Shown here: positions 12,256-34,204 of the stretch, one piece after another
Layout of the letters: every line of letters begins with the position of its first letter
How positions within the stretch are numbered: position 1 is the stretch's first letter
From: a virus
Taxonomy: Duplodnaviria; Caudoviricetes
DNA length: 56,001 nt
IMG/VR virus record: IMGVR_UViG_3300020057_000388
Coordinates: 1-56,001 of that record
Strand: one strand, 5' to 3'
Translations under genes and position numbers: made by a program
The notes under the pieces: generated by a model
Database searches by the model: none
What the model saw: the letters and a program-made list of their open reading frames with translations, nothing else
What the model was told of the DNA's origin: nothing

Positions 12256-12265
12256 GGGGGTCGGG

Positions 12266-12883: not shown

Positions 12884-12886
12884 GCC

Positions 12887-13693: not shown

Positions 13694-13720
13694 TTCACTT
13701 CCACAAGATCGGAACCAGTC

Positions 13721-13945
13721 ATGTCCGTTATCACTCGCGACGGTGGCATCGAAGCAACCGAAGCGCACCTCATTCTCGAATCTGCGATGGCGCGACTCAC
13801 GTTCGACGAGCGCCGCGTGGTCGCGCTTCGCATGGAAAACGCATCGTTCTTCGAGATCGCGCAGGAGCTGAACGTGCGCCCGGATTCGGCACGCGCGCTG
13901 TACGAGACGGCGCGCACAAAGCTGGCGTCGATCATCGGCGAGTAA
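13721..13945 (+). CDS. Sigma-70 region 4-like HTH protein
   Basis: LTFDERRVVALR...SFFEIAQELNV...ARTKL. Confidence 0.7.
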   Translation: MSVITRDGGIEATEAHLILESAMARLTFDERRVVALRMENASFFEIAQELNVRPDSARALYETARTKLASIIGE

Positions 13946-13955
13946 GGGGGGTTCT

Positions 13956-14150
13956 ATGTTTGGGAAGCTGCGGAGGTGGTTCGGGGGAACCCCGACGGGT
14001 GAAGCTGCCCGTCGCGAGCTGGTGATCGACGCCCGTATTCGGGACAACCGCGCCCATGGCGTGCGGCGGAAGGCGTCGCGGAATGCGTTCCGCAAGGCCA
14101 AGCGCCAAGCGCAGCGACGCGCACGACGCGTCACGCGGCACGCGCGATGA
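13956..14150 (+). CDS. Small basic hypothetical protein
   Basis: G-rich SD, operon packing. Confidence 0.45.
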   Translation: MFGKLRRWFGGTPTGEAARRELVIDARIRDNRAHGVRRKASRNAFRKAKRQAQRRARRVTRHAR

Positions 14151-14332
14151 TCGAGCTGCGGCTGCAGGACGAGAACGGCAATGGCATCGCGCTGACCGAG
14201 GCAGACAAGGGCGGTGCGCAGCTGACCGTATTCGGCGGCAGCGACAGCGTCATCGTGCGCCTCACGCGCCGGCAAGTCGATGCGCTCGCGCAGGGCGCTG
14301 AGTCAATCGCGGACGGCTCACTGCTCGACTGA
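14147..14332 (+). CDS. Hypothetical protein
   Basis: ATGA overlap with upstream gene. Confidence 0.5.
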   Translation: MIELRLQDENGNGIALTEADKGGAQLTVFGGSDSVIVRLTRRQVDALAQGAESIADGSLLD

Positions 14333-14368
14333 GCAGTGACATCACAAAACAAAATCGAGGGGGCTGGT

Positions 14369-15094
14369 ATGGCAAAGCGGGCAGCGGGGAGCGAGGTTGT
14401 GGTGGTCGAGGCTGACATGGTGGACCCGGACGACATCGCCCCTGGTCTCGAGGACGTGGACCTGACCAAGATTCGCACGGTGTCGGGTCTGCGCGAGATC
14501 GGCACCGAGCTGCAGGCTGACGTCCGCGGCTTGCTCGACGAAGTCGACGACCTGACGGACACCGTCGAGTCGCGCGAGGCAACGCTGGCTGCGTACAAGA
14601 GCGTGGCCTGTGACTGGCAGACGACGGCCGAGCAGGCGCAGAGCAACGCCGAGCGTGCGAACCTGACGTCGGTGCAAGCGCTCTCGCTCCGCGACGAAGC
14701 GATGCGCGAGCTACGCGGTGCGCGCTCGCTGTTTATGTCGATCTTGCGCGCCAAGTCCGAGGTGGGTCCCCGGCTGCTTGCGGATCTTCGCGTCGCCAGG
14801 GCGAACGAAGCGGCCTGCGCGGCCTACGCGAAAACGGCCGAATCTGTCAACCACGGCCTTGCGGCCCGCGTGCTGGAGATGGAAGCGGAAGTCGGTGCGA
14901 AGGCCGACGAATTGGCCGAGTGCCAGCATAAGGTCAACGCCGCGCTCGAATCGCGTGACGTCGCTCGCGCGCTACGCGACGACTTGCGCCAGGACGTCGC
15001 GAACCTGAAGTATCGTCTGGTGCCGCTCGTAGCCATCATCGGCGCAGCCATCGGCGGTTCGATCGCGGGCACCATCGCGTCGCTGCTGCGGTAG
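14369..15094 (+). CDS. Coiled-coil protein with C-terminal transmembrane helix
   Basis: Ala/Leu/Glu heptads, hydrophobic C-terminus, GAGGGG SD. Confidence 0.7.
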   Translation: MAKRAAGSEVVVVEADMVDPDDIAPGLEDVDLTKIRTVSGLREIGTELQADVRGLLDEVDDLTDTVESREATLAAYKSVACDWQTTAEQAQSNAERANLTSVQALSLRDEAMRELRGARSLFMSILRAKSEVGPRLLADLRVARANEAACAAYAKTAESVNHGLAARVLEMEAEVGAKADELAECQHKVNAALESRDVARALRDDLRQDVANLKYRLVPLVAIIGAAIGGSIAGTIASLLR

Positions 15095-15098
15095 GTCA

Positions 15099-17849
15099 TT
15101 GACGCCCGACCTGATCACGCGCATCAAGGCGCTGCTGGACGACCCCAAGAGCAAACACGCCAAAGCCTTCGCCGAATTTCTGGCCGGTTTGCAGCACAAC
15201 CTCAACCCCGCCGTCAGCCGTGACGACGCGATCGAGATGCTCGCGCAGCACCTCATCACCGGGCCGGTGTTCAACGCGCTGTTCGGCAACTACCAGTTCA
15301 CGCAACACAACCCCGTCTCGCAGGCCATGGGGAAGATGCTGCAATTGCTCGACGAGCAAGCCATCGGGAAGGAAGCCGAAACCCTCGACAAGTTCTACGA
15401 AGCCGTAAAAAGAAAAGTCGAAGGCGTCGACGACGCCGAAGGCCGCCAGACCGTCATCAAAACGCTCTACGATGAGTTCTTCAACAAGGCCTTTCCCCGC
15501 ATGGCCGAGCGGCTGGGCATCGTCTACACGCCCGTCGAAGTCGTCGACTTCATCATCCACAGCGTTCAGGACGTTTTACGCGACGAGTTCAACAGCGGAC
15601 TGGGCGAAAAAGACGTCCACATTATCGACCCCTTCACCGGCACCGGCACGTTCCTCGTCCGTCTGCTCCAGTCCGGCCTCATCCCGCCCGACAAGCTGCT
15701 GCACAAATACAAACACGAGATGCACGCCAACGAAATCGTCCTGCTCGCCTACTACATCGCCGCCATCAACATCGAAGAAACCTTCCACGGCCTGCGAAGC
15801 CAAGGCGCGAGCCTGGCCGAAGGCAAGGGCAAGGACGACTACATCCCCTTCGACGGCATCTGCCTGACCGACACGTTCCAACTCTACGAATCCGGCCAAC
15901 AACAATTCGAAGGCACCTTCCCCGAAAACTCCGCCCGCGTGAAACGCCAGAAAGCCAGCCCGATTCGCGTGGTCATCGCGAACCCGCCGTACTCCGCGCT
16001 ACAGAACAGTGAGAACGACGGAAACAAGAACCTCAAATACGAATCGTTGGACGACCGCATCCGTGCGACGTACGCGGAAAGGTCAAATGCGACGTTGCTG
16101 AACAGTGTCTACGACAGCTATGTCCGCGCCATTCGCTGGGCCAGCGATCGGATCAAGGACCGCGGCGTAATTGGATTTGTCACCAACGGCTCGTACATCG
16201 ACGGTAACGCATTCGATGGCTTGCGTGCTTGCCTGAAAGACGAATTTACATCGATTCTGGTCTTTAACTTGCGCGGAAACCAGCGGACGTCAGGTGAGCT
16301 ATCAAGGCAAGAAGGCGGAAAAATCTTCGGCTCCGGTAGTCGCGCGCCTATCGCCATCACGTTGTTTGTAAAGAACCCCGCTAAGAAGGACGGTTGCACA
16401 GTCCGGTACCACGACATCGGCGACTACCTCAGCCGCGAAAAAAAGCTCGCGCTCGTTAAGAGTTTCGCGAGCGTTTCGGGAATCGAAAACGCAGGGAAGT
16501 GGAGAGAGATTGAGCCCAATAGCGACAATGACTGGATCAACCAGAGAGACGAAGCCTTTTCGACTTTCGATGAATTGGGCCAGACCGACGCGATTTCAAA
16601 GGTTGTATTCTTTGAAGACTACTCAAGCGGCGTAATCACCAACCGCGACGCATGGTGCTACAACTTCTCGCAGAAAGTATTGCGGTCGAACATGTCCGAC
16701 ATGATCGACTTCTTCAATTCTGAAGTGAAACGATTCAAAAACTCCAACGTTCCCACTACCCCGAAGGAGCGGTTAGAGGCCGTTGACGATTTCATTGAGA
16801 TCGACCTCAAGAAGATCAGTTGGACGCGAGAGGTAAAACAGGATTTGGCGAGAGGAAAAGCGGGCAAATTCCATTCGGACGCTGTTCGCCAGTCGATGTA
16901 TCGTCCGTATTCAAAGCAGTGGATGTACTTCGACCGCCAATTCAATAACTGCGTCTACCAAATTCCGAAGATCTACCCGACTGCGAACTCCAAAAACCTC
17001 TCAATCATGGTGTCCGGCATCGGCGCTTCGAAAGAATTCTCCGCGTTGATAACCAATTGCACGCCCAACCGGCATTTGCACGATACAGGACAGTGTTACC
17101 CGCTCTATCTCTATGAACCCGCCGAAGATTCCGGCAATCTCAACCTCGGTAAAAGCGAAGGTGAGGTCATCGACGGCTATCGCCGTCGGGACGCGATCAC
17201 GGATGCGATCCTGAAGACGTTCCGGGCCGCGTACGGGAAGGACGTGGGCAAGCAGGACATCTTCTATTACGTCTACGGCGTGCTGCATTCCCCCGAGTAC
17301 CGCACCCGCTTCGCGGCGGACTTGAAGAAGATGCTGCCGCGCATCCCGCTGACGAAAGAAACCAAGGATTTCAAAACCTTCTCCGACTCCGGCCGGAAGC
17401 TGGCGGAATGGCACTTGAACTATGAGACGGTGCCGACCTGGCCGGTGGAGGAGATTCACGACAAGCTCGATCTGGGGTTGCCCGAGACCTATAAGGTCGA
17501 CAAGATGCGATTCGAACGCCCGAGCGCCGAGCAGAAGGCCGCGGGGGCGAAGTGGGACAAGACCCGCATCATCTATAACAGCCACCTGACGATCTCGAAG
17601 ATTCCGCTGGAGGCGTACGACTACATCGTGAACGGCAAGCCTGCGATCGAATGGATTATCGAACGCTATCAATTCACGCGGGACAAGGACAGCGGGATTG
17701 TGAATGACCCGAACGACTGGTGTAAGGAACACAACCAGCCGAGGTATATTGTGGATTTGATCGGGCGGGTGGTGCGGGTGAGTGTGGAGACGATGAAGAT
17801 CGTGAACCGATTGCCGATGTTGAATGAGAGAAAAGAGCGGGCGGGTTAA
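15099..17849 (+). CDS. Type ISP restriction-modification enzyme, N-terminally truncated (N6-adenine MTase + TRD only)
   Basis: RLGIVYTPVEVVDFI, DPFTGTGTF, NPPY, NLRGNQRTSGE, YVYGVLHSPEYR, VNGKPAIEWI; nuclease and SF2 helicase domains missing. Confidence 0.9.
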   Translation: MTPDLITRIKALLDDPKSKHAKAFAEFLAGLQHNLNPAVSRDDAIEMLAQHLITGPVFNALFGNYQFTQHNPVSQAMGKMLQLLDEQAIGKEAETLDKFYEAVKRKVEGVDDAEGRQTVIKTLYDEFFNKAFPRMAERLGIVYTPVEVVDFIIHSVQDVLRDEFNSGLGEKDVHIIDPFTGTGTFLVRLLQSGLIPPDKLLHKYKHEMHANEIVLLAYYIAAINIEETFHGLRSQGASLAEGKGKDDYIPFDGICLTDTFQLYESGQQQFEGTFPENSARVKRQKASPIRVVIANPPYSALQNSENDGNKNLKYESLDDRIRATYAERSNATLLNSVYDSYVRAIRWASDRIKDRGVIGFVTNGSYIDGNAFDGLRACLKDEFTSILVFNLRGNQRTSGELSRQEGGKIFGSGSRAPIAITLFVKNPAKKDGCTVRYHDIGDYLSREKKLALVKSFASVSGIENAGKWREIEPNSDNDWINQRDEAFSTFDELGQTDAISKVVFFEDYSSGVITNRDAWCYNFSQKVLRSNMSDMIDFFNSEVKRFKNSNVPTTPKERLEAVDDFIEIDLKKISWTREVKQDLARGKAGKFHSDAVRQSMYRPYSKQWMYFDRQFNNCVYQIPKIYPTANSKNLSIMVSGIGASKEFSALITNCTPNRHLHDTGQCYPLYLYEPAEDSGNLNLGKSEGEVIDGYRRRDAITDAILKTFRAAYGKDVGKQDIFYYVYGVLHSPEYRTRFAADLKKMLPRIPLTKETKDFKTFSDSGRKLAEWHLNYETVPTWPVEEIHDKLDLGLPETYKVDKMRFERPSAEQKAAGAKWDKTRIIYNSHLTISKIPLEAYDYIVNGKPAIEWIIERYQFTRDKDSGIVNDPNDWCKEHNQPRYIVDLIGRVVRVSVETMKIVNRLPMLNERKERAG

Positions 17850-17951
17850 GTGGGGGGTGTTGGAATCCGATGCTGGTGTGGCAACGGCCGTAGCCGTACA
17901 ACCGTGAACGTCCGAGTTTGGCGATTATGTCGACGCAGCGGATAGCGACCT

Positions 17952-18071
17952 CTTTGGAATTGCTGGCTGTATCCAGCGATTGGCTTCTGGTGTAGTTTCG
18001 CGGGTGGCTGTTCGATCGCCACGGCGAACCTCGCCTGGCTGTGGCTCATGTTCTTGTACCGGCGCAACTAG
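17952..18071 (+). pseudogene. 3' remnant of a small membrane-protein gene displaced by the Type ISP insert
   Basis: Startless frame LWNCWLYPAIGFWCSFAGGCSIATANLAWLWLMFLYRRN*. Confidence 0.55.
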
Positions 18072-18101
18072 GCGGCGGATCTTCTCGGTAGGTGGTGGAC
18101 A

Positions 18102-19163
18102 GTGGCGAATCAAGAGGCAGCGCAGGGATTCAAACCGGGGATGTTCTCGCGGCCCGACCGCGTCCACGCGCCTTTGCATGTGGTGTGCACCCTGTTCAAT
18201 TCAGCGCGCTACCGTTCTCGCTGGGATCTCTACGAGCCTTTTGCGAAGATGGTTCACGACGCGGGCGCCGTCCTGCATACGGTCGAGGTCGCGTTCGGGG
18301 ATCGTGACCATGCGGTGCCGGAGTATGCGCCCGCGATGGATTCGGCGACGCCGTCATGGGTGCCGACTCCGCAGCACCAATATACGCGCCTGCGCACCAA
18401 GTCCGAAATCTGGCACAAGGAGTCGTCACAGAATGTCGGCGTGACCCGGCTTCCCCATGACGCCGAGTACATCCTTTTTCTCGACGCCGACGTTCGTTTC
18501 GTTCGGCCGGATTGGGCAGGTGCCATCGTTCAGGCACTGCAACACTACGCGGTGCTGCAGCCGTGGAGTGAAGCACTCGACCTGACGCACGACTTCAGGC
18601 CGCACCAGACACACAAGTCATTCGCGGCGTGTTTTCGCGAGGGCGATCAACGCAACCCCACTGGTCACCGTCCGTACTACGGCGGTCCGGTGCAGCCAGG
18701 CAAAACGCACCTGTGGCATCCGGGTTTCGCGTGGGCGTGGCGCCGGGATGCGCTCGACGCGGTTGGCGGGCAGATTGATTTCGCCATCGCTGGCGCCGGT
18801 GACCATCACCAAGCGCAAGCGCTGATCGGTGAGGTAGACCGATCGTTCCATCCGAAGGCGCACCCCGGCTATGTTCGTCGGTTGCATGAGTGGCAGGCGC
18901 TGGCCGAGCGCGAGATCCGACGCAACATCGGGTTCATCCCTGGCCTCATCACGCATGCTCATCATGGGCCGAAGCGGTCGCGGCAATACTGGCAGCGCTG
19001 GCGCATCCTGGTCGACAACGGATTCAACCCTGACGTTGATCTCAAGCGTGACTGGCAGGGGCTCTATCAGCTCGTCGATGACGGCTCTGCGCGGTCGAGG
19101 AATCTGCGCGACCAGCTGCGGACGTACTTTGCTTCGCGGAACGAAGACGATCCAAACACTTGA
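18102..19163 (+). CDS. GT-A fold glycosyltransferase-like protein
   Basis: IWHKE, FLDAD (DxD), HPGFAWAWRR, GAGDH, HHG motifs. Confidence 0.65.
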   Translation: MANQEAAQGFKPGMFSRPDRVHAPLHVVCTLFNSARYRSRWDLYEPFAKMVHDAGAVLHTVEVAFGDRDHAVPEYAPAMDSATPSWVPTPQHQYTRLRTKSEIWHKESSQNVGVTRLPHDAEYILFLDADVRFVRPDWAGAIVQALQHYAVLQPWSEALDLTHDFRPHQTHKSFAACFREGDQRNPTGHRPYYGGPVQPGKTHLWHPGFAWAWRRDALDAVGGQIDFAIAGAGDHHQAQALIGEVDRSFHPKAHPGYVRRLHEWQALAEREIRRNIGFIPGLITHAHHGPKRSRQYWQRWRILVDNGFNPDVDLKRDWQGLYQLVDDGSARSRNLRDQLRTYFASRNEDDPNT

Positions 19164-19176
19164 CCGCGATGGCCCC

Positions 19177-19418
19177 GACGCTTCAAAAAAGTTGCGTGCC
19201 GGCCGGGGCACGGTGGGAAAAATTCCGGTGATGGGGATGCGCGAGCGCGGCAAGGGCGGCCGGACGAAAGCACACCCCGTCGCCAGCACTGAGGCGAACA
19301 CACTCCAAGCGGCCATCCACAAGAGCGTTGAGAGTGGGTCAACCCTCCACACTGACGAGCACGGCGGCTATCATGGTATCGGCGGCCTCTTCTACGATCA
19401 CCACACCGTCAGCCATGA
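19177..19418 (+). pseudogene. IS1595/ISXO2-family transposase internal fragment
   Basis: KKLRAGRGTVGKIPVMGMRER...GSTLHTDEHGGY...HHTVSH, with no start or C-terminus. Confidence 0.8.
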
Positions 19419-19462
19419 GCCCCCTTCCTTCTGTTTCTTTGTGACGTCGCAATGGCCCCCCT

Positions 19463-19990
19463 ATGCCGACAATCGAAAAACTATACGCCGGCATGCTAGA
19501 CGCCACTGCAAATGGCAAGAGCCACGGTATTGGGCGGGAAGACTGCGAATTCGCAGAGTATGCCCTTACGCAGGTGGATCGACTTCGTGCCGGCCTCCTT
19601 TCTCTCGGGGGGAGAGAAAAAGACGTTCAGGGTGTTTTACGAAAGCTGCGCCAGGGGGCGGCTTCGTATCGGCGTCGAGCGCGTCATGCGAAGGCGAGGA
19701 ACGCCTCCGTACAAAAGTACGGCGTTAGCTTTCGCCAACGGGTCGCCGAGCGCGATGGACTGAAGTGTAAAGTCTGCGGGTTCGACGTGACCGTTCACGC
19801 ACATCACATCGTTCCGATATCGGAAGATGGACCGGATGAATCAGAGAACGGCATCATGCTCTGCCCTCATTGCCATTCATTGGCGCACGCCGGAAGGCTC
19901 ACGGCCCAAAGTCTCTATGCCTTGATCAGCGTCACATCAGCCCATGGCGCTAGTTCTGTCATCGGGAATGAAGCTAGTTGTGGCGTCTGA
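19463..19990 (+). CDS. HNH endonuclease
   Basis: RDGLKCKVCG...HAHHIVP...NGIMLCPHCH. Confidence 0.85.
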   Translation: MPTIEKLYAGMLDATANGKSHGIGREDCEFAEYALTQVDRLRAGLLSLGGREKDVQGVLRKLRQGAASYRRRARHAKARNASVQKYGVSFRQRVAERDGLKCKVCGFDVTVHAHHIVPISEDGPDESENGIMLCPHCHSLAHAGRLTAQSLYALISVTSAHGASSVIGNEASCGV

Positions 19991-20768
19991 CACTGGGGGT
20001 CAGGTCCGCGAGTCCGTTGGTGGTCGACCTGAAGTGGCACTCGACCTAACCCAGCTCTACAAGTTGGCGCTTCGCGCATCGACGGTCGCTGACGTGGCGC
20101 AATGGTTCTGCGTCTCCGAGCGAACGGTCTACCGACGACTGCTGGAGGAGCCCTACGCTTCTATCTGGGCGCGAGGGCAGGCAGAGGCGAAGGTCAGCGT
20201 GCGCGCGGCCCTCTTTGGGATGAAGGATACCAACGCGACCGCGGCGATCTTCCTCGCGAAGAATCTCTGCGGGATGACGGATAAGGTCGCCCACGAGCAC
20301 GCCGGCCCCGGTGGCGGGCCGATCGCAATGGTGACGACGTACGCCGACCTAGCTCGCGAAGCCGAGGCGCTGATTCGCAAGGGGGTGCGAATCGAAGGCT
20401 ACGACTACATTGACGGGGAGCTAGTGCCGAATGACGAGGGCGAGGACACCCGAGGATCAGAAGATCATCAACCACCTGACCAACAAGCAACGCCCGGAAT
20501 GGTGGGTCGAGACGCACCTATCGGGGAAGCTCTGGCCGAAGCAGGTAGAGATCCTGCGCTCGATCAAGAAGAATCGACGCACGGCGGTGCGCTCGTGCCA
20601 TGGCGCGGGCAAGACGCACTTGGCAGCGAGAGCGGCCCTGCAGTTCGGGTGCTGTCACCCGTACAGCATCGTGATCACGACAGCGCCGACGGGGCGCCAG
20701 GTGCGGAAGCTGCTGTGGCAGGAGCTGCGGAAGGCGCACTCGACAGCGCTTCGGCCGTTGGGTGGTAA
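19968..20768 (+). CDS. terS: Terminase small subunit
   Basis: HTH-like N-terminus, AAIFLAKNLCG, EHAGPGGGPI; directly upstream of terL; start uncertain. Confidence 0.75.
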   Translation: MKLVVASDTGGQVRESVGGRPEVALDLTQLYKLALRASTVADVAQWFCVSERTVYRRLLEEPYASIWARGQAEAKVSVRAALFGMKDTNATAAIFLAKNLCGMTDKVAHEHAGPGGGPIAMVTTYADLAREAEALIRKGVRIEGYDYIDGELVPNDEGEDTRGSEDHQPPDQQATPGMVGRDAPIGEALAEAGRDPALDQEESTHGGALVPWRGQDALGSESGPAVRVLSPVQHRDHDSADGAPGAEAAVAGAAEGALDSASAVGW

Positions 20769-21825
20769 GCTCAACCTCACCGACCTGACGTTCGAGGATG
20801 GGTGGTACCTGTTCGGGTTCGCGACTGACGACCCGACGAGCTTTCAGGGCGTCCACCCGTCGAGCGGTCACATTCTGATCATCGTCGACGAGGCAAGCGG
20901 CGTCGCGGATGAAATCTGGGAAGCCATCGACGCGGTCATGTCGTCGGGTGGCGCCCGGCTGCTGAGCATCGGCAACCCAACCGATCCTAACAGCCGCTTC
21001 GCTCAAGAGTTCAAAACCCCCGGCGTCGAGAAAATCAAAATCACGGCGTTCGATACGCCGAACCTGCAGGGCAACGGTATCGTCATCCCTGGCCTGGTCA
21101 CACAGGAATGGGTCGACGACATCGCCGCACGCTACGGCGAGGAGTCATCGTTTTACATCAGCCGCGTGCTGGCTGACTTCCCCGAGCTGGGCGACGACAC
21201 GTTGTTCCCGCTCTCGTGGATCGAGCGCGCCATGGCCCGAGAGATCGAGCCCAAGGCGACCGACCCGAAGGGGCTCGGCGTCGACGTCGCACTGTACGGG
21301 GGCGACGAAACCGTCATCGCGACCCGGCATGGACCGCGGGTGCGCCTGGTCGAGTGCTACCGGAACCAGGATACGATGGCGACCGCCGGTCGGGCGAAGA
21401 TATGGCGCCGCGACTTCGGAGCCGAGGTGATCGGCGTGGACGCCAACGGCATCGGCGCCGGGGTGCACGATAAGCTGATCGAGGAAGGGGAACCGTCCGA
21501 GCCGATCAACGTCGGCACACGCGCCCACGACCCCGAGCGGTACTTCAACCGCCGCAGCGAATTGTATTGGGCGGTGCGCGAGCGTCTGAAGTCGGGCGAC
21601 TGCGATCTGCCGCAGGATGATCTGCTGTGCGCGCAAATGTCGGCGATCCGCTACCGCGTGAACGGGAAGGGTCAGATTCAAGTCGAGAGCAAGGACGACA
21701 TGCGCAAGCGCCTGAAGCACCGCGCCGGGGTGAACAGCCCTGACCGTGCGGATGCCGTGGTGCTGGCCTACGCAGCGCGGTCGTCGTCGCTCATCAGCAT
21801 CGACAACGCGATTTCGTTTGGGTGA
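20431..21825 (+). CDS. terL: Terminase large subunit
   Basis: Walker A SCHGAGKT, Walker B IIVDEA, GNP, nuclease GVDVA and SPDRADA. Confidence 0.95.
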   Translation: MTRARTPEDQKIINHLTNKQRPEWWVETHLSGKLWPKQVEILRSIKKNRRTAVRSCHGAGKTHLAARAALQFGCCHPYSIVITTAPTGRQVRKLLWQELRKAHSTALRPLGGKLNLTDLTFEDGWYLFGFATDDPTSFQGVHPSSGHILIIVDEASGVADEIWEAIDAVMSSGGARLLSIGNPTDPNSRFAQEFKTPGVEKIKITAFDTPNLQGNGIVIPGLVTQEWVDDIAARYGEESSFYISRVLADFPELGDDTLFPLSWIERAMAREIEPKATDPKGLGVDVALYGGDETVIATRHGPRVRLVECYRNQDTMATAGRAKIWRRDFGAEVIGVDANGIGAGVHDKLIEEGEPSEPINVGTRAHDPERYFNRRSELYWAVRERLKSGDCDLPQDDLLCAQMSAIRYRVNGKGQIQVESKDDMRKRLKHRAGVNSPDRADAVVLAYAARSSSLISIDNAISFG

Positions 21826-21840
21826 CAAGGGGGTGAGGGG

Positions 21841-22044
21841 ATGGGACGCAACGCACGCAAGCAGTACCGCACGGGCAAGCTGCCCTGTGGGCACGCGTAC
21901 CGGATCAACACCAAGTCGACGCCGATCGGAACGCTGATTCAGCGCTGCAACGGCTGCGTCCGCGACCTGAAGGCAGCGACCGGCGAGGGCACCACGATCG
22001 CCGAGCGCGAGCTATACTTCATCGAGAACCGAGCCGCGGCGTAA
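21841..22044 (+). CDS. Hypothetical protein
   Basis: GAGGGG SD; stop overlaps next start. Confidence 0.5.
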   Translation: MGRNARKQYRTGKLPCGHAYRINTKSTPIGTLIQRCNGCVRDLKAATGEGTTIAERELYFIENRAAA

Positions 22045-22520
22045 TGGGGGCGACAACCTACGCCGCACGCATCGCCAACGTGACGCAGCTGCGTACGCGG
22101 CAAGGGCCGCGCGTGTCGGTGGTGCTGAACCTCGACGCCGAAGCGACACCTGGCCTGGTCAGCGAGCTGAACAGCCTCTGGATGGAGCGGGACGTACAGG
22201 TCGCGCTCGTGGCCCCGCACGAGGGCCACAACCTCGGCAACATCCAAGCGGCTGTCATGCGCATGGACGAGCCGGCACCCGCGCCCGTGCCGTCAGTGTG
22301 TACCGATCAGGTCACGCTCGGGGGCTATGGAGCTCGCGCCGGGGAGCTGGCAGCGACGCAGCCTGACCGCCTCGCCCTGGTGGTCGATCTCGTCGGCCGC
22401 ATGCTGGGCACCCACGCGCACGTGACCGACATCGCCAAGACGACAGGCACCGCGGCGGTCGACATCGCCTGCGAGCTGATCGAGCACGCCGAGAAACGTC
22501 TGGCTGAGCGGGCTAGCTAA
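22044..22520 (+). CDS. Hypothetical protein
   Basis: TAATG coupling, phage-like codon usage. Confidence 0.6.
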   Translation: MGATTYAARIANVTQLRTRQGPRVSVVLNLDAEATPGLVSELNSLWMERDVQVALVAPHEGHNLGNIQAAVMRMDEPAPAPVPSVCTDQVTLGGYGARAGELAATQPDRLALVVDLVGRMLGTHAHVTDIAKTTGTAAVDIACELIEHAEKRLAERAS

Positions 22521-22627
22521 AGTGTCGCTCTACATCCTGAAGGTCCGCACCACCGGCACGGTGGACGGCTACACCACAGCCATCGTCGAAGCACTGACCG
22601 CGGTCGAGGCAGCGCTAGAGCTAGGCT

Positions 22628-22867
22628 GTGAGACCCATGACGGCCAAGCGGCATTGGATCATCGCCACCTTCGAGCGCCTGCCAGAGCTTGAGGTGTTCG
22701 AGCTGGAGCACTGGGCGTGCAAGAACTGCGATGACACCCACGTCGACGACTGGCAACTGGACCGCAATCAGACGCGGATACAGGTCGCCGGGGAAAGGCA
22801 TGTGGCAGAGCACGCGCCAGAGGACCGACACCCGATGCACTTTCCCGCACCGCACGTCACGCATTAA
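22628..22867 (+). CDS. Hypothetical protein, possibly cut short by the MTase insert
   Basis: CKNC motif; stop falls at the composition shift near 22865. Confidence 0.45.
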   Translation: MRPMTAKRHWIIATFERLPELEVFELEHWACKNCDDTHVDDWQLDRNQTRIQVAGERHVAEHAPEDRHPMHFPAPHVTH

Positions 22868-22896
22868 CAAACATGCTGGAAACGGATAGAGAACGA

Positions 22897-23949
22897 ATGA
22901 CCTATGCGCTACACCACGGCGACTGCATGGAGGTTATGCGGACGCTACCGGACAACTCCATCGATCTTGTGCTGACTGACCCGCCCTACTTCAAGGTCAA
23001 GGGCGACGATTGGGACAGGCAATGGGATAAGCCGGACGCCTTTCTCTCGTGGCTGGATGGTGTGGTGGAACAGTTCGTGCGCGTGTTGAAGCCGAATGGG
23101 AGCCTGTACCTGTTCGCCAGCCCGCAGATGGGTAGCCGCGTAGAAATGCAGATTGCCGTGCGCTTGAGCGTGCTGTGCAACATTCGATGGCGCAAGGAGC
23201 AGGGGTGGCATAATGGGGCATGTAAGGATGATTTACGCGGTTACTTCCCCGCCTCCGAAACAATCATCTTTGCCGAGCACTACGGCGCGGACAACATCGC
23301 CAAGGGTGGGGCGGGCTATGCGGCCAAGTGCGACGAGCTGCGGGGGTTCATCTTTGAGCCGTTGCGGGCTTATATCGCGGGCGAGTGGCAGCGCGCTGGC
23401 CTGACTTCGCGAGACGCCAACATCGCAACATCCAGCCAGATGGCGGGCCACTACCTGAGCCGCGTTCAGTGGAGGCTGCCTACGCGCGAGAAGTACGAAC
23501 AGCTTCGCGCCTATGCCAACCGCCAAGGCGGCGAGTATTTGCGCAAGGACTACCATTATTTGCGCAAGGACTACCATGAATTGCGCAAGGATTACGAGGA
23601 CTTGCGCAAGGACTACCATGAATTGCGCAAGGATTACGAGGACTTGCGGCGACCGTTCGCAGTCACCGCTGATGTCCCCTATACCGACGTTTGGGACTTC
23701 CCCACGGTGCAGGCATACAGGGGCAAGCACCCATGCGAGAAGCCGCAGGCGCTGTTGCGGCACATCATCGCGGCCAGTTCCAAGCCTGGCGCTGTAGTGC
23801 TTGACGCATTCGCGGGATCGGCCAGCACTGGTATCGCATGTCAGGCGATGGGCCGCTCGTTTATCGGGATCGAGAAGGATGCGGGCTATTACGCCAGTGC
23901 AACCGAACGGCTGTTTGATCGCCAAGAATCACTACTGGCAGCGGCATGA
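22897..23949 (+). CDS. Beta-class N4/N6 DNA methyltransferase
   Basis: HHGDC, TDPPY, HPCEKP, LDAFAGSAST. Confidence 0.93.
   Translation: MTYALHHGDCMEVMRTLPDNSIDLVLTDPPYFKVKGDDWDRQWDKPDAFLSWLDGVVEQFVRVLKPNGSLYLFASPQMGSRVEMQIAVRLSVLCNIRWRKEQGWHNGACKDDLRGYFPASETIIFAEHYGADNIAKGGAGYAAKCDELRGFIFEPLRAYIAGEWQRAGLTSRDANIATSSQMAGHYLSRVQWRLPTREKYEQLRAYANRQGGEYLRKDYHYLRKDYHELRKDYEDLRKDYHELRKDYEDLRRPFAVTADVPYTDVWDFPTVQAYRGKHPCEKPQALLRHIIAASSKPGAVVLDAFAGSASTGIACQAMGRSFIGIEKDAGYYASATERLFDRQESLLAAA
23539..23648. repeat. 21-bp in-frame tandem repeat (LRKDYxx x5) within the MTase
   Basis: TTGCGCAAGGA(C/T)TAC... unit at 23539, 23560, 23581, 23602, 23623. Confidence 0.9.
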
Positions 23950-23959
23950 GGCTAACGGC

Positions 23960-24109
23960 ATGACTTACGCGCTACACCACGGCGACTGCCTAGAGGTAAT
24001 GGCGGGGCTGCCGGATGCGAGCGTGGACTTAACCGTCACCAGTCCGCCATACGACAACCTGCGCACGTATAACGGGTTCACCTTTGACTTTGAGGGCATC
24101 GCCCGCGAG
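23960..24109 (+). pseudogene. Truncated second DNA methyltransferase (5' ~50 codons)
   Basis: MTYALHHGDC...TSPPYDNLRTYNGFTFDFEGIARE, then unrelated sequence; no SAM-binding motif. Confidence 0.8.
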
Positions 24110-24216
24110 GAAGTGCGCCGGCTGCAGGCAAGCCGCCTCAGTCACACGTCGGCGTCGTTCTGGTCGGGTGGCTCACGCGACAACGGCCGAGAGATTCAAG
24201 CAGCGAAGGAAGCAGA

Positions 24217-24573
24217 ATGGAGGGCGTACGGGTGCTGAAGGGGCAAGGCTCATTGTTCGGGCAGAACCCGATCGCGCACACGAACGACCCTGTGACGTCG
24301 CACCTGGCAGCCGACTACGTGACCCGCACCGGGAAGCGGGGCACGCACGTGACGCTCGTCGTCAACCTCGTGCGCGCCTATCCGGGCATGACCGCCTGCG
24401 AGCTGTGGCAGCTCGGGAGCGACCCCGACCGCCGCGAGCTGGGCGAGCTGCAAGAGATCCGCCGCCGGCTGACTGATGCAGACGCGGCCCTACTCGTGAA
24501 GCAGGGGCCAGCGCGGAAGTGCCGTGTTCGGGGATCAACGCAAGTGACGTGGTGGAGGGGTGATGCTGAGTAG
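24217..24573 (+). CDS. Phage winged-helix-like protein
   Basis: AHTNDPVTSHLAA...PGMTACEL...RRRLTD pattern. Confidence 0.7.
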   Translation: MEGVRVLKGQGSLFGQNPIAHTNDPVTSHLAADYVTRTGKRGTHVTLVVNLVRAYPGMTACELWQLGSDPDRRELGELQEIRRRLTDADAALLVKQGPARKCRVRGSTQVTWWRGDAE

Positions 24574-24627
24574 GTGCGGCTGTTCGGTGGCCGGCCATGC
24601 ACCGCGGTCCGCTTGGAGGATGCCTAA

Positions 24628-24804
24628 GTGCGCTGGCCTTGCTGTCACCGGCGCGCCATGGCCTGGATGCCAGACGCCGGGCAATTTGCGTGCCCCGTCT
24701 GTAGGCGCAGGCTGCGCGTGTTCCGCGGTTATTTGCCGCTCGCTAAATCGGCTGCGCCCCGCCCCCTACCCCACACGTGCCCACACGTGGAGCCGCTGAC
24801 ATGA
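24628..24804 (+). CDS. Small zinc-finger protein
   Basis: GGAGGA SD, GTG start, CC...CPVC; below the ORF-track cutoff. Confidence 0.45.
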   Translation: MRWPCCHRRAMAWMPDAGQFACPVCRRRLRVFRGYLPLAKSAAPRPLPHTCPHVEPLT

Positions 24805-25355
24805 ACCCAAGTCCAAGAAAGTACCCCATGGCGCATGCCGATGTCATTGCCACGGCGGTGGCAAGGCACATCTTCCCCTGGCGTCAATTCATTGTCGTGC
24901 CGAACGTCAGCTGGGGGCTGGTAAGCTGGGAAATGGACCTCGCGGTGCTGTCGGAAAGCGGAGTGCTGTACGAGGTCGAGATCAAGACCAGTAAGGCAGA
25001 CCTAAAGGCTGACGCCAGCAAGCGGAAGTGGAAATGCCCTGATTTTGGCCGTCGTATCGGCCATCATTACGTCGCCTTGCCTGTCGAGAAATACCATGAC
25101 ATGGGGCCGCTGGTCCCCGCCACGAGCGGCATCATCGCGGTGCCGCAATTCGGCAAGCCAGAGCTGCGCCGCAAGGCCGTGGCGAACCGCAGCGCCGAGA
25201 AGGTCAGCGATGCCGATCGTCAGCAATTGATGCGACTAGGGTGCATGCGCTACTGGGCGCGCCAAGACGCCTGCCACGCCATGCTTGAGGCGCTGCACGG
25301 CTTGGCGCTGCACTGCCCGCTGACTGCTACCCCACACTTGGAGCCGCTGACATGA
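24780..25355. repeat. 25-bp direct repeats flanking a one-gene cassette
   Basis: CCCACAC(G/T)TGGAGCCGCTGACATGA at 24780-24804 and 25331-25355 (24/25 identical). Confidence 0.85.
24801..25355 (+). CDS. MmcB-like PD-(D/E)XK nuclease-fold protein
   Basis: VPNVSWG...EMDL...YEVEIKTSKADLKAD. Confidence 0.75.
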   Translation: MNPSPRKYPMAHADVIATAVARHIFPWRQFIVVPNVSWGLVSWEMDLAVLSESGVLYEVEIKTSKADLKADASKRKWKCPDFGRRIGHHYVALPVEKYHDMGPLVPATSGIIAVPQFGKPELRRKAVANRSAEKVSDADRQQLMRLGCMRYWARQDACHAMLEALHGLALHCPLTATPHLEPLT

Positions 25356-25399
25356 GCAGTATTATTCACACGGGCGATGCGCTTGAGATCCTGCGCACA
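25352..25399 (+). pseudogene. N-terminal stub of another DNA methyltransferase
   Basis: MSSIIHTGDALEILRT, then loss of similarity. Confidence 0.55.
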
Positions 25400-25485
25400 A
25401 CACGTCGCACGAGAAGCGCTTCGGCCTGTCGTCCGACATCTACGAAGCCTGGTGTCAACCGCGCAAGGGTGGCGGCGTCACGCTG

Positions 25486-26319
25486 ATGGTGCTGCTCACG
25501 CGCAAGTCGTATTTGATCGACCGCAACCTGAGCGAGCAGGACGCCAACGACACCGCACGTTGGCTGACCTACTGGCTCGGCTTCCGGGGGATGCCGGCCA
25601 AGGTCGAGACGGCAAGCATGGATCTCGGCAACGGGCGCAGTCTGTCCCGTGCGTCGATCGCGCTGCCGCCGCAGCACTCGCAGTCGACCCCGAAGGGGGC
25701 ACGCCTGCCGGTCGCCTACATGGTCGAGAAGGTCGTGGCGATGGCGCGTGCGGGGCTGCGTGACTATGTGTCGGGCAGCTGGGTGCCGATGAACGACCCG
25801 ACGCCGCGGCACGGCCTGACGTTCAAGCATGACCCTGCCACGGCGCCTGTCGTGCGCCCGTTTACGATGCCGCTGAAGCCATCGCCGATGCCCAACCTGC
25901 TCCGCGATGCGCTCGCGCGATGCGCGGACGAGATGGTCGCCGAGGTCAAGGCAACCGTCGGTCGCGCGATCAAGGTCATGGCACCACGCACCGACCCGTT
26001 CAGTGACTACCTGTCGCGCGCGATGGCGAACGCTGGCCCCGTGCCTGGTCCGGCTGCCCGCACGCCGCTGACGCCCGCCCCGCCGACGGTCACCACCGGC
26101 GAACGCTGGGCGCAGCTGACAGCCACCTTCAAGGACGCACGCCACGCGACCGAGGATGCAATCACGATCATCCGAGGGCAGTGCGTGCAGGCTGGCTACC
26201 GCCTCGACTGGTCGCGGCTGGAAATCATGTCGCACACCAAGGGCGATGACGGCGTGACGCTCAGACTGCGAGCGCCGCTGCTGTCGGGTGGTGTGACGTC
26301 GCGCAAGGTCGGGCTGTGA
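25486..26319 (+). CDS. Hypothetical protein
   Basis: Long ORF with phage codon bias. Confidence 0.65.
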   Translation: MVLLTRKSYLIDRNLSEQDANDTARWLTYWLGFRGMPAKVETASMDLGNGRSLSRASIALPPQHSQSTPKGARLPVAYMVEKVVAMARAGLRDYVSGSWVPMNDPTPRHGLTFKHDPATAPVVRPFTMPLKPSPMPNLLRDALARCADEMVAEVKATVGRAIKVMAPRTDPFSDYLSRAMANAGPVPGPAARTPLTPAPPTVTTGERWAQLTATFKDARHATEDAITIIRGQCVQAGYRLDWSRLEIMSHTKGDDGVTLRLRAPLLSGGVTSRKVGL

Positions 26320-26444
26320 CGCCGGGGGTGTTTCTGATGCTCGTCGGTATCACGCTACTATCGCCACGCGCGGGCGTGATTATGCTTGCGGTGATCGTGT
26401 GGCGGTGCTGACGCAGGCGAGGTCGTGAACGCGCTACAGGTTCC

Positions 26445-26726
26445 CTAGCTAGCTTTTCGCTCGCGGGGCGCTGCGGCGTACTGCACCAACAGCGGCACAC
26501 CGCCGCGGTGTTCGGGATCACCGAGGACGGCATCAAGCGCGCTCGGGTCAGGGATTGGCTCGCCGTCCTCTCGCATGCCTTCGATATGGAACGCCAGCGC
26601 CTCGACGGCGCGTTCGTGGGCCTGCTGTAGCGTCTCGCCGACGGTGATGCACCCTGGAAAGTCGGGGAACATTACTCCGAAGTCGGAGTCAGGCTCTTTC
26701 CGTAGAATCGCAATGTAGGTCGTCAT
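26445..26726 (-). CDS. hicB: HicB-family antitoxin (short form)
   Basis: FGVMFPDFPGCITVGET...EALAFHIEGMREDGEPIPDPS. Confidence 0.92.
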   Translation of the reverse strand: MTTYIAILRKEPDSDFGVMFPDFPGCITVGETLQQAHERAVEALAFHIEGMREDGEPIPDPSALDAVLGDPEHRGGVPLLVQYAAAPRERKAS

Positions 26727-26744
26727 AGTAGCGGCTCCCTTCGC

Positions 26745-28295
26745 CTAGCGTATCTGTATCCCCGCCTGGCGTTCAATGCTGCGGTGCGTGCCTGGCGTCA
26801 CGTCCTTGACGGGGTGCGGCACCGTCACGCGGCCCGGCTTGGTCGGGTGCCGCAGGGAAGAAGAAATGACGAACCGACTCAAACGACTGGAGCTGACCTG
26901 GATCGGCAAGGATGAGCGGCCCCGGCTGGAGCCCCGCATTCTGCTCCCTGAGGCTTCGCTCGCGCACGTGTCGGCGACCAACGTTGGCCGACGCAGTGAT
27001 CACCTCGTCATCGAAGGTGACAACCTGCTCGCCCTGAAGGCCTTGGAGCAGGAGTTCGCTGGCAAGGTCAAGTGCATTTACATCGACCCCCCGTACAACA
27101 CCGGAAGCGCCTTCTTTACCTACGACGATGGTTTGGAACACAGCCTCTGGCTGTCCCTTATGCGCGCCCGCCTTGAGCTTCTTTGGAAACTGCTCACGCC
27201 GCGCAATGGGACCTTGCTCATCAGCATTAACGACGACGAATGCCACTACCTGAAAGTTCTTTGCGACGAGCTTTTCGGGCGCGACGCATTCTACTGCAGC
27301 TTCGTATGGAACTACGAAGGGAACACCGACAACCAGGCCAAGGTAATCAACTACCACGAATACGTACTCGCCTATTCCAAGTCTGGCGACATCGATGAGC
27401 CGAACGTCGTCGACCCCAATGTCGGCGCGGACAGCAAGCTCTTCCGCGCCGAAATCCGCAATACGGTCGTGAAGAACGGTCCGAAGAACCCGCCTGTAGC
27501 GGTTCGACTTCCTGCGGGATTTCCGGCGTCGTTTGACTCCGGGAGGGTAGCCCGAGAAGACGTCCAGTGGCCCAGATACGACCGAGATCTCCACGTCTCC
27601 GCGGGTAAACTGTCGAAGCCTGTTACGGCCACGTCCGGCTGGAGCTCTCGCAAGATCCTGGAGTCCTTTGTCGCCGCCGGCTTCAGCCCCGTGCTCGACA
27701 GCAAAGGGCAGGAGACGGTGTTCGAGATCACGCGAACGGGCGCTATCGAGGCTGTCAAAAAGCGGGAGCAACGCAAGGGTCATGTCGTCAGCGTTCTCCG
27801 TGGTTTCGGCACGACTAATCAGATGCGTCTAATGCTGGAGAGACTCGGGATCAGGTTCTCCTACCCGAAGCCGGTGGATCTCGTTGCGTACCTCATCGAG
27901 GTATTCAGCGGACCCGATGACATCATTCTCGACTCCTTCGCAGGCAGCGGAACCACTGGTCATGCAGTGCTGAAGATCAATGCCGAGCGGGGGAGCAATC
28001 GACGCTTCGTCCTTGTCGAACTTGACTCCGACACCGCACGGAGTGTCGTCGTACCCCGCCTGCGTGCGGCCGCCGACGGGCACGAAGGTGCTGGACTGTC
28101 AGGCTACGGAGGCGGCTTCCGCTTCTTCAAGCTCGCCCCCATCGCTGCTCGAGAAGGATAAGTGGGGCAACTGGATCGTCAGCAAGCAGTACCACCCCGA
28201 GATGCTCGCCGAGGCGATGTGCAAGCTCGAGGGCGCTGCGACACGACCTGCCAGCCATCCGCGTTCAGGTGCTTGAGCAGTTCCCGACTCGACAT
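26745..28295 (-). pseudogene. hicA: HicA toxin gene split by the mod insert
   Basis: 5' part 28295-28233 MSSRELLKHLNADGWQVVSQR; 3' part 26855-26745 LRHPTKPGRVTVPHPVKD...; GSH motif absent. Confidence 0.88.
26866..28161 (+). CDS. mod: Type III R-M methyltransferase (Mod), C-terminally truncated
   Basis: LELTWIGK, GDNLLALKAL, IYIDPPYNTG, PKP, LDSFAGSGTT; native tail continues in another frame after a C5 run at 28136-28140. Confidence 0.9.
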   Translation: MTNRLKRLELTWIGKDERPRLEPRILLPEASLAHVSATNVGRRSDHLVIEGDNLLALKALEQEFAGKVKCIYIDPPYNTGSAFFTYDDGLEHSLWLSLMRARLELLWKLLTPRNGTLLISINDDECHYLKVLCDELFGRDAFYCSFVWNYEGNTDNQAKVINYHEYVLAYSKSGDIDEPNVVDPNVGADSKLFRAEIRNTVVKNGPKNPPVAVRLPAGFPASFDSGRVAREDVQWPRYDRDLHVSAGKLSKPVTATSGWSSRKILESFVAAGFSPVLDSKGQETVFEITRTGAIEAVKKREQRKGHVVSVLRGFGTTNQMRLMLERLGIRFSYPKPVDLVAYLIEVFSGPDDIILDSFAGSGTTGHAVLKINAERGSNRRFVLVELDSDTARSVVVPRLRAAADGHEGAGLSGYGGGFRFFKLAPIAAREG

Positions 28296-28330
28296 GCAGA
28301 AAGAATAGCGTGGCGCGCGACATCTGTCAA
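28296..28330 (-). promoter_or_regulatory. hicAB promoter, probably giving a leaderless mRNA
   Basis: TTGACA-N17-TATTCT-N6-ATG. Confidence 0.7.
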
Positions 28331-28537
28331 GCAAAAAAGACGTCGCTGGTCTACGATCGTGGGCTCGTCGGCGGCATGCCGTCGGTGGTGATCACGCCAC
28401 CAGGCAAGCGCGTGTACTTCGGCATGAACCTCGGCCGTGAAGGTCGACCAGCGGAACCCTACGTTAAGGTCGCCGAGTCCGAGCTGCTGGGGCTGATTAA
28501 GGCGCTGACGGGCTGCGAGATCGAGGTGCGAACATGA
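28310..28537 (+). CDS. Hypothetical protein
   Basis: ATGA overlap with next gene; start uncertain. Confidence 0.4.
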   Translation: MARDICQAKKTSLVYDRGLVGGMPSVVITPPGKRVYFGMNLGREGRPAEPYVKVAESELLGLIKALTGCEIEVRT

Positions 28538-28743
28538 GTGTTTACATTAAGCGCGACTGGCGCTGGTGGCCGATCTGGTGCCGCCTGTTCGGCCATGGCG
28601 ACTATCTCGGCGTCGCTACCGAGGAATGGATCGCGGGCCGCTGGGTGACGCAACGGCGCTGCCTGCGCTGCAGCAAGATCAAGCTGTACGTCGAGCGTCG
28701 CGTGATCCGCGGGGCGCGCACGCACCTGAAGGGGGAACGGTAA
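28534..28743 (+). CDS. DUF1660-like small protein
   Basis: WCRLFGH...CLRC motif. Confidence 0.6.
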   Translation: MSVYIKRDWRWWPIWCRLFGHGDYLGVATEEWIAGRWVTQRRCLRCSKIKLYVERRVIRGARTHLKGER

Positions 28744-28745
28744 AG

Positions 28746-28940
28746 ATGGCGAATCCTATCATGCGACATTTCGCGTACGAGCACCTGCCTGCGCACCTGC
28801 AGGAAGTCAGCAAGCCTATCGGCGACCTGGCACGCACGATGGACGAGACGCTGCCTGACTGTGCCGAGAAGTCGGCGGGCCTGCGCAAGATCCTCGAAGC
28901 GAAAGACTGCCTCGTTCGCGCGAAGCTCGAAGGCAAGTAG
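28746..28940 (+). CDS. Conserved small helical-hairpin phage protein (Acb2/Tad1-like candidate)
   Basis: FAYEHLPAHLQEVSKP...EKSAGLRKILEAKDCLVRA. Confidence 0.7.
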   Translation: MANPIMRHFAYEHLPAHLQEVSKPIGDLARTMDETLPDCAEKSAGLRKILEAKDCLVRAKLEGK

Positions 28941-28942
28941 CC

Positions 28943-29323
28943 GTGCCCGTCGATCGCAAGGGCCTACGCGTCATCGAAGGCGGCAAGGATAAACCCAAGC
29001 CGCTGCCCGTCAAGCAACGCCTGCACACCACCATGGCGTGCGTGATCAGCATGATCGAGGACGGGTCATTGCAGGGCATGGCAATCTCGGGCGTCACGGA
29101 TGAAGGCAACCCGGTGGCGTTCGTGAACCTCGGGGACGCGAATGCCTGCACACTCCGCGGGGCGCTGGCACTGACCGAGGATGTCATGCGCGAGATGCTG
29201 ACCGAGTACGAGACAGCGGACGTCGAGCTCGACGCTGACGAGCTGATCGACGCGTGCTCGGCGGGATGCACCGTGACGGGTAACGCGGAGCCTGACGAGC
29301 CTGACGGCAACCGGACAGCGTGA
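28943..29323 (+). CDS. Hypothetical protein
   Basis: LRVIEGGK motif, operon packing. Confidence 0.6.
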   Translation: MPVDRKGLRVIEGGKDKPKPLPVKQRLHTTMACVISMIEDGSLQGMAISGVTDEGNPVAFVNLGDANACTLRGALALTEDVMREMLTEYETADVELDADELIDACSAGCTVTGNAEPDEPDGNRTA

Positions 29324-29574
29324 TGATGGGGATTCCTGGCGCGATCCTGGCCGATGGTCGGATCGAGCGACAGCACGAAAGCCCGGAGTGCGCAGCGACG
29401 CGTGCCCGTGCCGAAGCCGCAGGGCACAGACGTCGTGGCATCGTTCGAGCGTCGCGACGACGCTGCAAGCGTGGCCGGTGACGTTCTTCTGTACGCTCGC
29501 GGCCGACTACGCCTGGGCGCGCTACACCGCCGGCATCGCCGGACGCGACGCGCGTCCGGCTGGTAACAGATCAC

Positions 29575-29603
29575 TTGACTAGTAGTCGATCATTGCCTAT
29601 TAT
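29575..29603 (+). promoter_or_regulatory. IS607 tnpA promoter
   Basis: TTGACT-N17-TATTAT, 6 nt before the ATG. Confidence 0.65.
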
Positions 29604-29609
29604 AGTCGC

Positions 29610-31243: not shown

Positions 31244-31483
31244 TAGGCGACTATTCATTTCCTAACTCTGGTCCGCTGTGATCATCCTGCTGTCAGCGTG
31301 CACCGTCGTCGCCTACACCACCAACCGCTGGATGGTGGTGCCCGCTGCCCTCGGCGCGTACGTCGGCACGTTTGTCGCGGTCCGCAGTGAGGTGACCGCC
31401 TCGTAGCTGAGCTGCAAGCCGCCAAGCGCGGAACCTAGCGCCCCGCTCCGCGCACCAAAATCAAACCAAGGGGAACATCGAAA

Positions 31484-33249: not shown

Positions 33250-33266
33250 AAGACGAAGGGGGAGCA

Positions 33267-34149: not shown

Positions 34150-34204
34150 GTGCGTCCCGGTTTCGCCACCTGTTCGCCCCTGCCGAAAGCCACGAGCCCT
34201 GCCT

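Follow-up and report, generated by a model that had tools for sequence, protein, structure and literature searches.

Nuclease-free Type ISP and Type III methyltransferase fragments in a variable region around the packaging genes of an uncultivated tailed phage

The stretch of DNA analyzed here, viral record IMGVR_UViG_3300020057_000388 (hereafter the window), is a linear record of 56,001 bp from an uncultivated tailed phage of microbial mats, with an estimated completeness of 61% and a GC content of ~65%. It encodes a DnaB-like helicase, an HNH endonuclease, the small and large terminases, a portal protein (33887–36415), a capsid protein, a tape-measure protein, and several glycosyltransferases. 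One part of the window contains three genes for DNA methyltransferases (MTases), all on the plus strand and with no cognate nuclease present: a fragment of a Type ISP restriction-modification (R-M) enzyme (15099–17849), a beta-class MTase (22873–23949), and a fragment of a Type III Mod gene (26866–28161). The GC profile shows low-GC islands at ~15.0–18.0, 19.3–20.0, 22.7–24.0, 27.0–28.0, and 29.5–31.3 kb. An earlier interpretation made from the letters alone (the sequence-only reading) had proposed three MTases of different classes within 13 kb, all on the main strand and devoid of a partner nuclease, and the Pfam and PADLOC searches bear this out. It had also called them catalytically complete. 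The motifs are indeed present in all three, but the Mod protein has lost ~140 C-terminal residues and is frameshifted (+1) at ~28141.

The stretch was found in eleven runs. Two of these are flagged as possible sources, and four others (X3, X4, X5, and X8) were compared as assembled contigs. Depths are given per contig and are summed across organisms. Run X8 has low depth, and its uncovered bins were not taken as absence. Joints within the ISP gene or with one short side (~20 letters, e.g., 14069→17226 and 14642→17428) were excluded as likely belonging to other organisms.

The open reading frame (ORF) at 15099–17849 starts with TTG and encodes 916 amino acids. It consists of a coupler (ISP_coupler, PF22240, E 7e-42), a gamma-class N6-adenine MTase (N6_Mtase/Eco57I, PF02384/PF07669) in which motif I (FTGTG) precedes motif IV (NPPY), and a specificity domain (Type_ISP_C, PF18135, E 1.6e-115). 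The protein corresponds to residues 687–1584 of a 1590-amino acid Type ISP enzyme (69% identity) and to positions 746–1640 of the 1646-position PADLOC profile of the fused enzyme, and its similarity to LlaGI and LlaBIII reaches E values of 1e-218 and 1e-189, respectively. The coupler, the MTase, and the C-terminal target recognition domain (TRD) follow the same order as in these two enzymes (PDB IDs: 5ffj and 4xqk). Unlike them, the window fragment has no counterpart of the first ~686 residues of the 1590-amino acid relative, which hold the Mrr nuclease and the SF2 ATPase. In the Pfam search of the ORF, neither an Mrr-family nuclease (PF13156/PF04471) nor an SF2 helicase-like ATPase (PF00270/PF00271/PF04851) was found. 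Because both are missing, the protein would neither translocate nor cut and could be at most a site-specific MTase. Excerpts of the LlaGI structure paper handle the coupler, MTase, and TRD as one unit and emphasize their modularity (PMC4872093).

Among the 120 best matches to the ISP protein (the window protein included), 72 are at least 1500 amino acids long and carry helicase Pfam domains, 26 have 1100–1499 residues, and 22 are shorter than 1100 residues. Four of the short relatives (P0023, P0029, P0026, and P0095) begin at most 18 residues from the same boundary. The nearest relative overall is a 980-residue protein without a helicase (72% identity), and the identical 916-residue protein occurs on five contigs of the collection. 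Two of 50,697 phage records match the fragment. Both are unverified Listeria records, and the one whose ORFs were inspected (H26) holds a full-length 1559-amino acid Type ISP gene. No phage-borne nuclease-free Type ISP derivative was found in this way, nor, judged by title and abstract, as the subject of a paper listed by a full-text search. A 47.9-kb viral contig (L051, 3760–8709) contains a full-length Type ISP gene of 1649 amino acids, 60% identical to the window fragment.

The TTG start lies 4 nt past the stop of a resident plus-strand phage gene (14336–15094) whose product is coiled-coil-like, has a C-terminal hydrophobic tail, and matches no family. This neighbor is not broken, since it has its own hydrophobic tail and its own stop at 15092–15094. 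To the right, 127 nt of flank separate the cassette from an open, intact-looking plus-strand ORF at 18102–19163, which is weakly glycosyltransferase-like (Glycos_transf_2, E 0.037; phrog_13126, E 0.0036) and has a frame-specific GC3. Scanned on both strands with Pfam and PHROG profiles, the surroundings of 15000 and 17850–18100 revealed no gene split by the cassette, and the proposal of the sequence-only reading that the ISP gene probably interrupts a resident gene is thus not upheld. Divergence between contigs delimits the cassette to 15104–17976 (plus strand, GC 47–62%), with the left break at 15104–15117 (or up to 15136) and the right break at 17976/17977. In X3, the backbone (depth 29.9–33.8) matches the window up to 15117 and again from 17977 onward, and the depth of the ISP interior is 13.1. 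The cassette is at full depth in X4, where a contig (14321–15775, depth 138.6) bridges the left junction. An exact-pattern scan of the viral contigs over 17960–17995 gave no match. X3 also has a loose end before 15104. Translated in frame, it gives sequence from further upstream in an ISP gene and hints at a longer ISP gene in this community; it was not counted as a donor. An apparent 14-nt overlap (15104–15117) between this loose-end form and the ISP-less allele is unverified and was set aside.

The Mod fragment is a 1377-bp insert (26856–28232, plus strand) composed of 10 nt with a Shine–Dalgarno (SD)-like sequence, GGAAGAAG, followed by the first ~465 mod codons. The ORF in the window (26866–28161, 431 amino acids) has its true start at the ATG at 26866 behind this sequence. 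It matches N6_N4_Mtase (Pfam) and MTase_III (PADLOC, E 3e-80), and DPPYNTG precedes FAGSGTT, the beta-class order, with the TRD between them. The first 427 residues are 77–78% identical to proteins of 591–608 amino acids, and a 78%-identical relative is matched by the Mod chains of PDB IDs 6k0w and 4zcf. At ~28141 the homology shifts by +1 and runs on for ~30 residues to ~28234, where it ends. The N terminus is intact and ~60 residues are retained after motif I, but the conserved C-terminal ~140 residues are missing. Relatives at 41% identity adjoin a Type III res or DEAD-box helicase gene. No res gene stands beside the window copy: the homology stops at ~28234, hicA comes next, and the Pfam scans detected no helicase or nuclease gene downstream.

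The insert lies in a minus-strand hicAB toxin–antitoxin locus. The hicB gene (26445–26726, 93 amino acids; PF15919, E 3e-20) is intact, and hicA is split into a 3′ part of 36 codons (26748–26855; positions 25–58 of 58 of PF07927 at 26855→26757, E 1.4e-8) and a 5′ part of 21 codons (28233–28295) with a promoter-like site at 28330→28302. About 5 codons (15 nt) of hicA were replaced by the antisense Mod fragment without a transposon-like signature. The broken resident gene that the sequence-only reading had seen around Mod is therefore hicA, whose two halves flank the insert. The left junction is bridged in X3, X4, and X5, and the right junction by an X3 contig (26279–29397, depth 42.3) in which the frameshift is abolished by the lack of one C at 28136. 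An unshifted Mod of 469 amino acids, the last 13 of which are read from antisense hicA, is present in other assemblies.

Two X4 contigs, both at full depth, are informative on the history of this insertion. One joins 26855 to 28233 via 15 letters encoding GSHVQ, which is the HicA segment missing from the window. The other carries Mod with 13 further mod letters (encoding F-R-Y-A, as in the relatives) and re-enters the window at 26782. The extra mod letters and the second copy of the sequence from 26782 onward indicate an older and fuller insertion than the window form. From these unitig joints, we take X4 to be a single genome whose hicA carries a 74-bp target duplication, a state that predates that of the window, and the window form may have arisen from it by a deletion of ~100 nt.

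The beta-class N6/N4 DNA MTase (22873–23949, plus strand, 358 amino acids) has motif IV (DPPY) before motif I (FAGSAST) and matches the profiles almost end to end (N6_N4_Mtase, PF01555, positions 1–220 of 221, E 3e-42; PADLOC MTase_II, PDLC03265, positions 27–327 of 333, E 3e-84; phrog_67, E 1e-74). Between its catalytic halves, 5.2 tandem copies of a 21-nt unit (23539–23648) encode a seven-residue LRKDY-type repeat. Relatives occur at 36 viral loci (37–64% identity), and at 6 of these, two MTase starts stand 1–2.9 kb apart. Ten nt past its stop, the ATG at 23960 opens a 5′ stub of a second beta-class MTase (23960–24130, plus strand, ~57 amino acids, with SPPY), whose frame continues into unrelated sequence to 24238. 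The stub resembles the start of the complete gene (66% identity over 35 residues, 82% over 56 nt; phrog_67, E 3e-15). Considering the tandem starts at the viral loci, a tandem pair that lost its second copy is the simplest origin of the stub. The second 5′ stub of the sequence-only reading, at 25352–25399 (plus strand), is weak. It has 16 residues, its start codon overlaps the upstream stop (ATGA), 7 of the 16 residues are identical to the MTase N terminus (E 0.74 within the window), and the score against one viral MTase is E 0.002. An X3 contig ends at 25400, which we took as a branch point.

The population data place the beta-class gene in a replaceable cassette of 1465 bp (22632–24096, plus strand) that comprises a 76-amino acid ORF (22637–22867), the MTase, and the 5′-most 137 nt of the stub. 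In other genomes this segment is swapped for 296 different letters (joint 22631→24097, depth 171 in X4 and 11.3 in X3). The depth of the cassette itself is 2.4–4.5 in X4 and ~32–37 in X3, and its left and right ends are bridged by an X3 contig (22602–23568) and an X5 contig (24037–24409), respectively. Further contig breaks occur at 25400, at 25503, and before 26279. The ISP and beta-MTase cassettes are thus presence/absence variants among near-identical phages. A comparison with empty sites in related phages, which the sequence-only reading had called for, failed. Megablast of 13000–31500 against the phage collection gave no match, and the closest large terminases (46% identity in viral contigs, 46% in metagenomes apart from the near-identical contig L057, and 32% in genomes) do not share the neighboring genes. 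These distant phages show no synteny with the window beyond the terminase. Both states of the ISP and beta-MTase cassettes are seen in the near-identical mat contigs.

Downstream of the beta-MTase cassette, a direct repeat (24762–24804 and 25313–25355; 25 nt at 96%, ~43 nt in all) flanks a 551-bp MmcB-like gene (24801–25355, plus strand; phrog_2776, E 4e-14; PF06319, E 9e-4, below the cut-off). The repeat carries an SD-like ribosome-binding site, two stops, and an ATG, and was found at these two places only. The arrangement is what stacking of the MmcB-like cassette, through recombination at sequence of a gene boundary, would look like. The MmcB-like gene was considered as a nuclease partner of the stub at 25352 and set aside, its Pfam score being under the cut-off. 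The next gene, 25486–26319 (frame open from 25387, first start codon at 25486), falls in a variable segment (25504–26278): X4 and X5 follow the window up to 25503, and X4 returns to it at 26279.

Here, we propose, with moderate confidence, that the ~16 kb around the packaging genes (15–31 kb) form a hypervariable accessory region in which fragments of R-M systems have been captured, trimmed, swapped, and retained for anti-restriction methylation, with cassettes gained, trimmed, and exchanged between near-identical genomes. The anatomy of the cassettes, their breakpoints, the junction support in other samples, and the cassette polymorphism are observed, and the proposal orders them as follows. 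The C-terminal unit of a Type ISP enzyme would have been cut at the start of the coupler, a cut that would have taken away the translocating ATPase together with the Mrr nuclease. From Mod, the first ~465 residues, without the C-terminal domain and without res, would have landed antisense in the hicA gene of the phage. An ordinary phage/Type II beta-class MTase would have entered in a 1.47-kb replaceable cassette beside the scar of a tandem MTase. The ISP and Mod pieces probably arose by non-homologous joining of R-M gene fragments, and homologous or short-homology exchange may have carried the beta and MmcB-like cassettes from phage to phage. The phage DNA would be methylated by the retained modules at the sites of their parent enzymes, and restriction systems of matching specificity would then stop cutting it.

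As judged from the conserved motifs and domains, the cassettes probably methylate phage DNA against host restriction. This role is plausible because the ISP ORF runs for 2.75 kb without a stop, Mod extends ~60 residues past motif I, rV5-like phages possess Mod-like genes, and phage phi50 offers a precedent. The idea that R-M fragments were captured, central to the sequence-only reading, fits the ISP and Mod pieces, which are broken inside the frame and lack nuclease and motor, but not the beta-class MTase, which belongs to an ordinary phage family.

Several points weigh against the proposal. No donor was found, the best full-length relatives being 69–70% (ISP) and 78% (Mod) identical. The ISP gene has a TTG start and a weak SD-like sequence, and its right junction (17976/17977) is bridged by none of the listed contigs from other samples. 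The domain that Mod has lost is nearly universal: only 2 of the 119 listed homologues are shorter than 480 residues (median, 561). The frameshifted 431-residue form is present not only in the window but also in a 57.7-kb assembly. As to the X4 contigs at hicA, a circular form or two sub-populations could also produce the observed joints. Finally, the beta-class MTase and both stubs appear to fit exchange between phages rather than capture from a host. The 1465-bp segment that is swapped with the beta cassette reaches into the stub at its right end, and phage-to-phage exchange and deletion scars fit this better than host capture does.

Nuclease-free ISP and Mod-like MTases may circulate ready-made among phages, in which case the truncations would be old and made elsewhere and only phage-to-phage shuffling at a recombination-prone region would be seen here. 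We regard this as a credible explanation, though not a probable one. Such a pool would account for the 21 of the 119 best ISP relatives that are shorter than 1100 residues and helicase-less, including the four that start near the same boundary and the nearest relative of all (72%, 980 amino acids). Mod-like genes without the C-terminal domain are conserved in rV5-like phages, tandem beta-class MTases are common in viral contigs, and the cassettes assort independently between samples. Some of the short ISP relatives may, however, be contig-end fragments, and only 2 of the 50,697 phage records match the ISP fragment, with the full-length gene of H26 residing in an unverified record. The X4 intermediate, with its extra mod letters and the target duplication in the phage hicA, places at least the insertion and the trimming of Mod in this lineage.

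It is rather unlikely that the ISP and Mod pieces are debris, i.e., functionless leftovers, carried neutrally, of illegitimate recombination that would be frequent in this dispensable region. Dead fragments do occur there (a transposase remnant of the IS1595 family, the stubs, and the split hicA), Mod is frameshifted in the window, and most X3 genomes do without the ISP cassette, as most X4 genomes do without the beta cassette. Against this, the ISP frame is open for 916 codons, begins at a domain boundary, and is identical on five contigs; the 469-residue Mod is open in other assemblies; and neither fragment has lost a catalytic motif or the specificity part, both being oriented along the main transcription direction. 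An assembly chimera, in which host R-M reads were wrongly joined to the phage contig and which the sequence-only reading had raised against itself, would agree with the cassette GC below that of the backbone and with the contig breaks at 17977 and 22576 in another assembly but is extremely improbable, since five of the six cassette junctions recur, some of them with the full depth of the phage, in contigs that come from independent samples and another assembler, and the second assembly (57.7 kb) holds both the ISP and Mod proteins.

A stronger version of our proposal, that a natural population has been caught turning host restriction enzymes into protective methylases domain by domain, with Mod in two successive states and the repertoire assorting, is tentative and somewhat doubtful. 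If it is true, a single non-homologous junction, placed where the coupler begins, is enough to make an MTase of matched specificity out of a single-chain Type ISP enzyme, and the cassettes assort among co-circulating genomes as a variable set of anti-restriction genes. Phage orphan methylases are already known, as is one laboratory domain capture. Their origin is rarely visible, and here breakpoints, an intermediate, and presence/absence variants are found within one wild population. If the fragments are active, such joining would be a simple route for a phage to gain exactly the specificity it has to mimic, and the fragments would be naturally minimized, ready-made site-specific MTases.

In the laboratory case, reportedly described by Hill et al. 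in 1991, the methylase is LlaI, encoded on plasmid pTR2030, and the phage is phi50, which acquired a functional amino domain of this methylase (PMC4190342). The window resembles phi50/LlaI and the 936-type lactococcal phages in having a partial R-M methylase without the nuclease, MTase genes at the packaging module, and an inferred protective role. Unlike in phi50, the pieces come from a Type ISP enzyme made of a single polypeptide and from a Type III Mod rather than from a Type IIS/IIA methylase, and several cassettes are present in one genome. The Mod fragment shares the beta-class motif order, the central TRD, and the N-terminal LELTWxGK start with Type III Mod proteins (EcoP15I Mod, PDB ID: 4zcf), but the window copy is visibly truncated from a gene of ~560–600 amino acids, cut mid-gene, and fused to antisense hicA. 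The conserved 441-amino acid Mod-like gene of rV5-like coliphages has the same extent and no res neighbor, although the window Mod is only 34% identical to these genes. In the phage collection, 109 of 50,697 records cover at least 80% of the Mod query. The cassette bounds at or near gene starts and stops, the short boundary repeat at the MmcB-like gene, and the independent assortment are like phage mosaicism. Ordinary mosaicism differs in two respects: here, two joints inside genes keep a working subset of domains, and intermediates are visible in one natural population.

The statement of the sequence-only reading that the MTases have no transposase has to be qualified, since transposase sequences lie nearby. 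An IS1595-family remnant of ~77 residues of the DDE domain (19186–19416, plus strand; PF12762, E 7.6e-17, positions 26–103 of 153; NF033547, positions 83–163 of 215) separates the glycosyltransferase-like gene from the HNH gene. This stretch looks variable too, as the contigs from X3 and X4 are interrupted at ~19237–19417 and 19865. A complete IS607-family element (29555–31264, plus strand), 1.3 kb to the right of hicA, is a discrete insertion with a serine-recombinase TnpA (29610–30173; NF033518, E 1.6e-58) and TnpB (30107–31243, E 2.7e-26). Its empty site, with 9 different letters linking 29554 and 31265, has a depth of 155 in X4 and of 12.1 in X3. In the four other samples the depth is zero over 29659–30275 and at most 0.17 over 30276–30892, and the element is present in the window version only.

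The packaging module (19463–21825, plus strand) consists of the HNH endonuclease (19463–19990; PF01844, E 6e-11), the small terminase (from 19944; phrog_309, E 1e-7), and the large terminase (20431–21825; phrog_2, E 4e-45). The HNH gene was considered as a restriction nuclease partner of the MTases and rejected, as it belongs to the HNH–TerS–TerL packaging arrangement. The small-terminase-like ORF (19944–20768) overlaps the large-terminase ORF by 337 nt in another frame. About 12 kb of accessory genes (21826–33886) lie between the large terminase and the portal, which is unusual in a head-packaging module. The metagenome contig L057 (4597 bp) is 99.8% identical to the window over 17977–22576 and ends at both coordinates. 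At 22093–22109, the window differs from L057 and X4 by a substitution cluster with 1-nt and 2-nt indels (net 3 nt).

Elsewhere in the window, FkbM-type and other methyltransferases together with several glycosyltransferases are encoded at 11521–13693, 39488–40570, and 48801–49949. Two of these glycosyltransferases match "GT4 in conflict systems". The FkbM-type methyltransferase and glycosyltransferase genes suggest possible functions in virion or DNA glycosylation.

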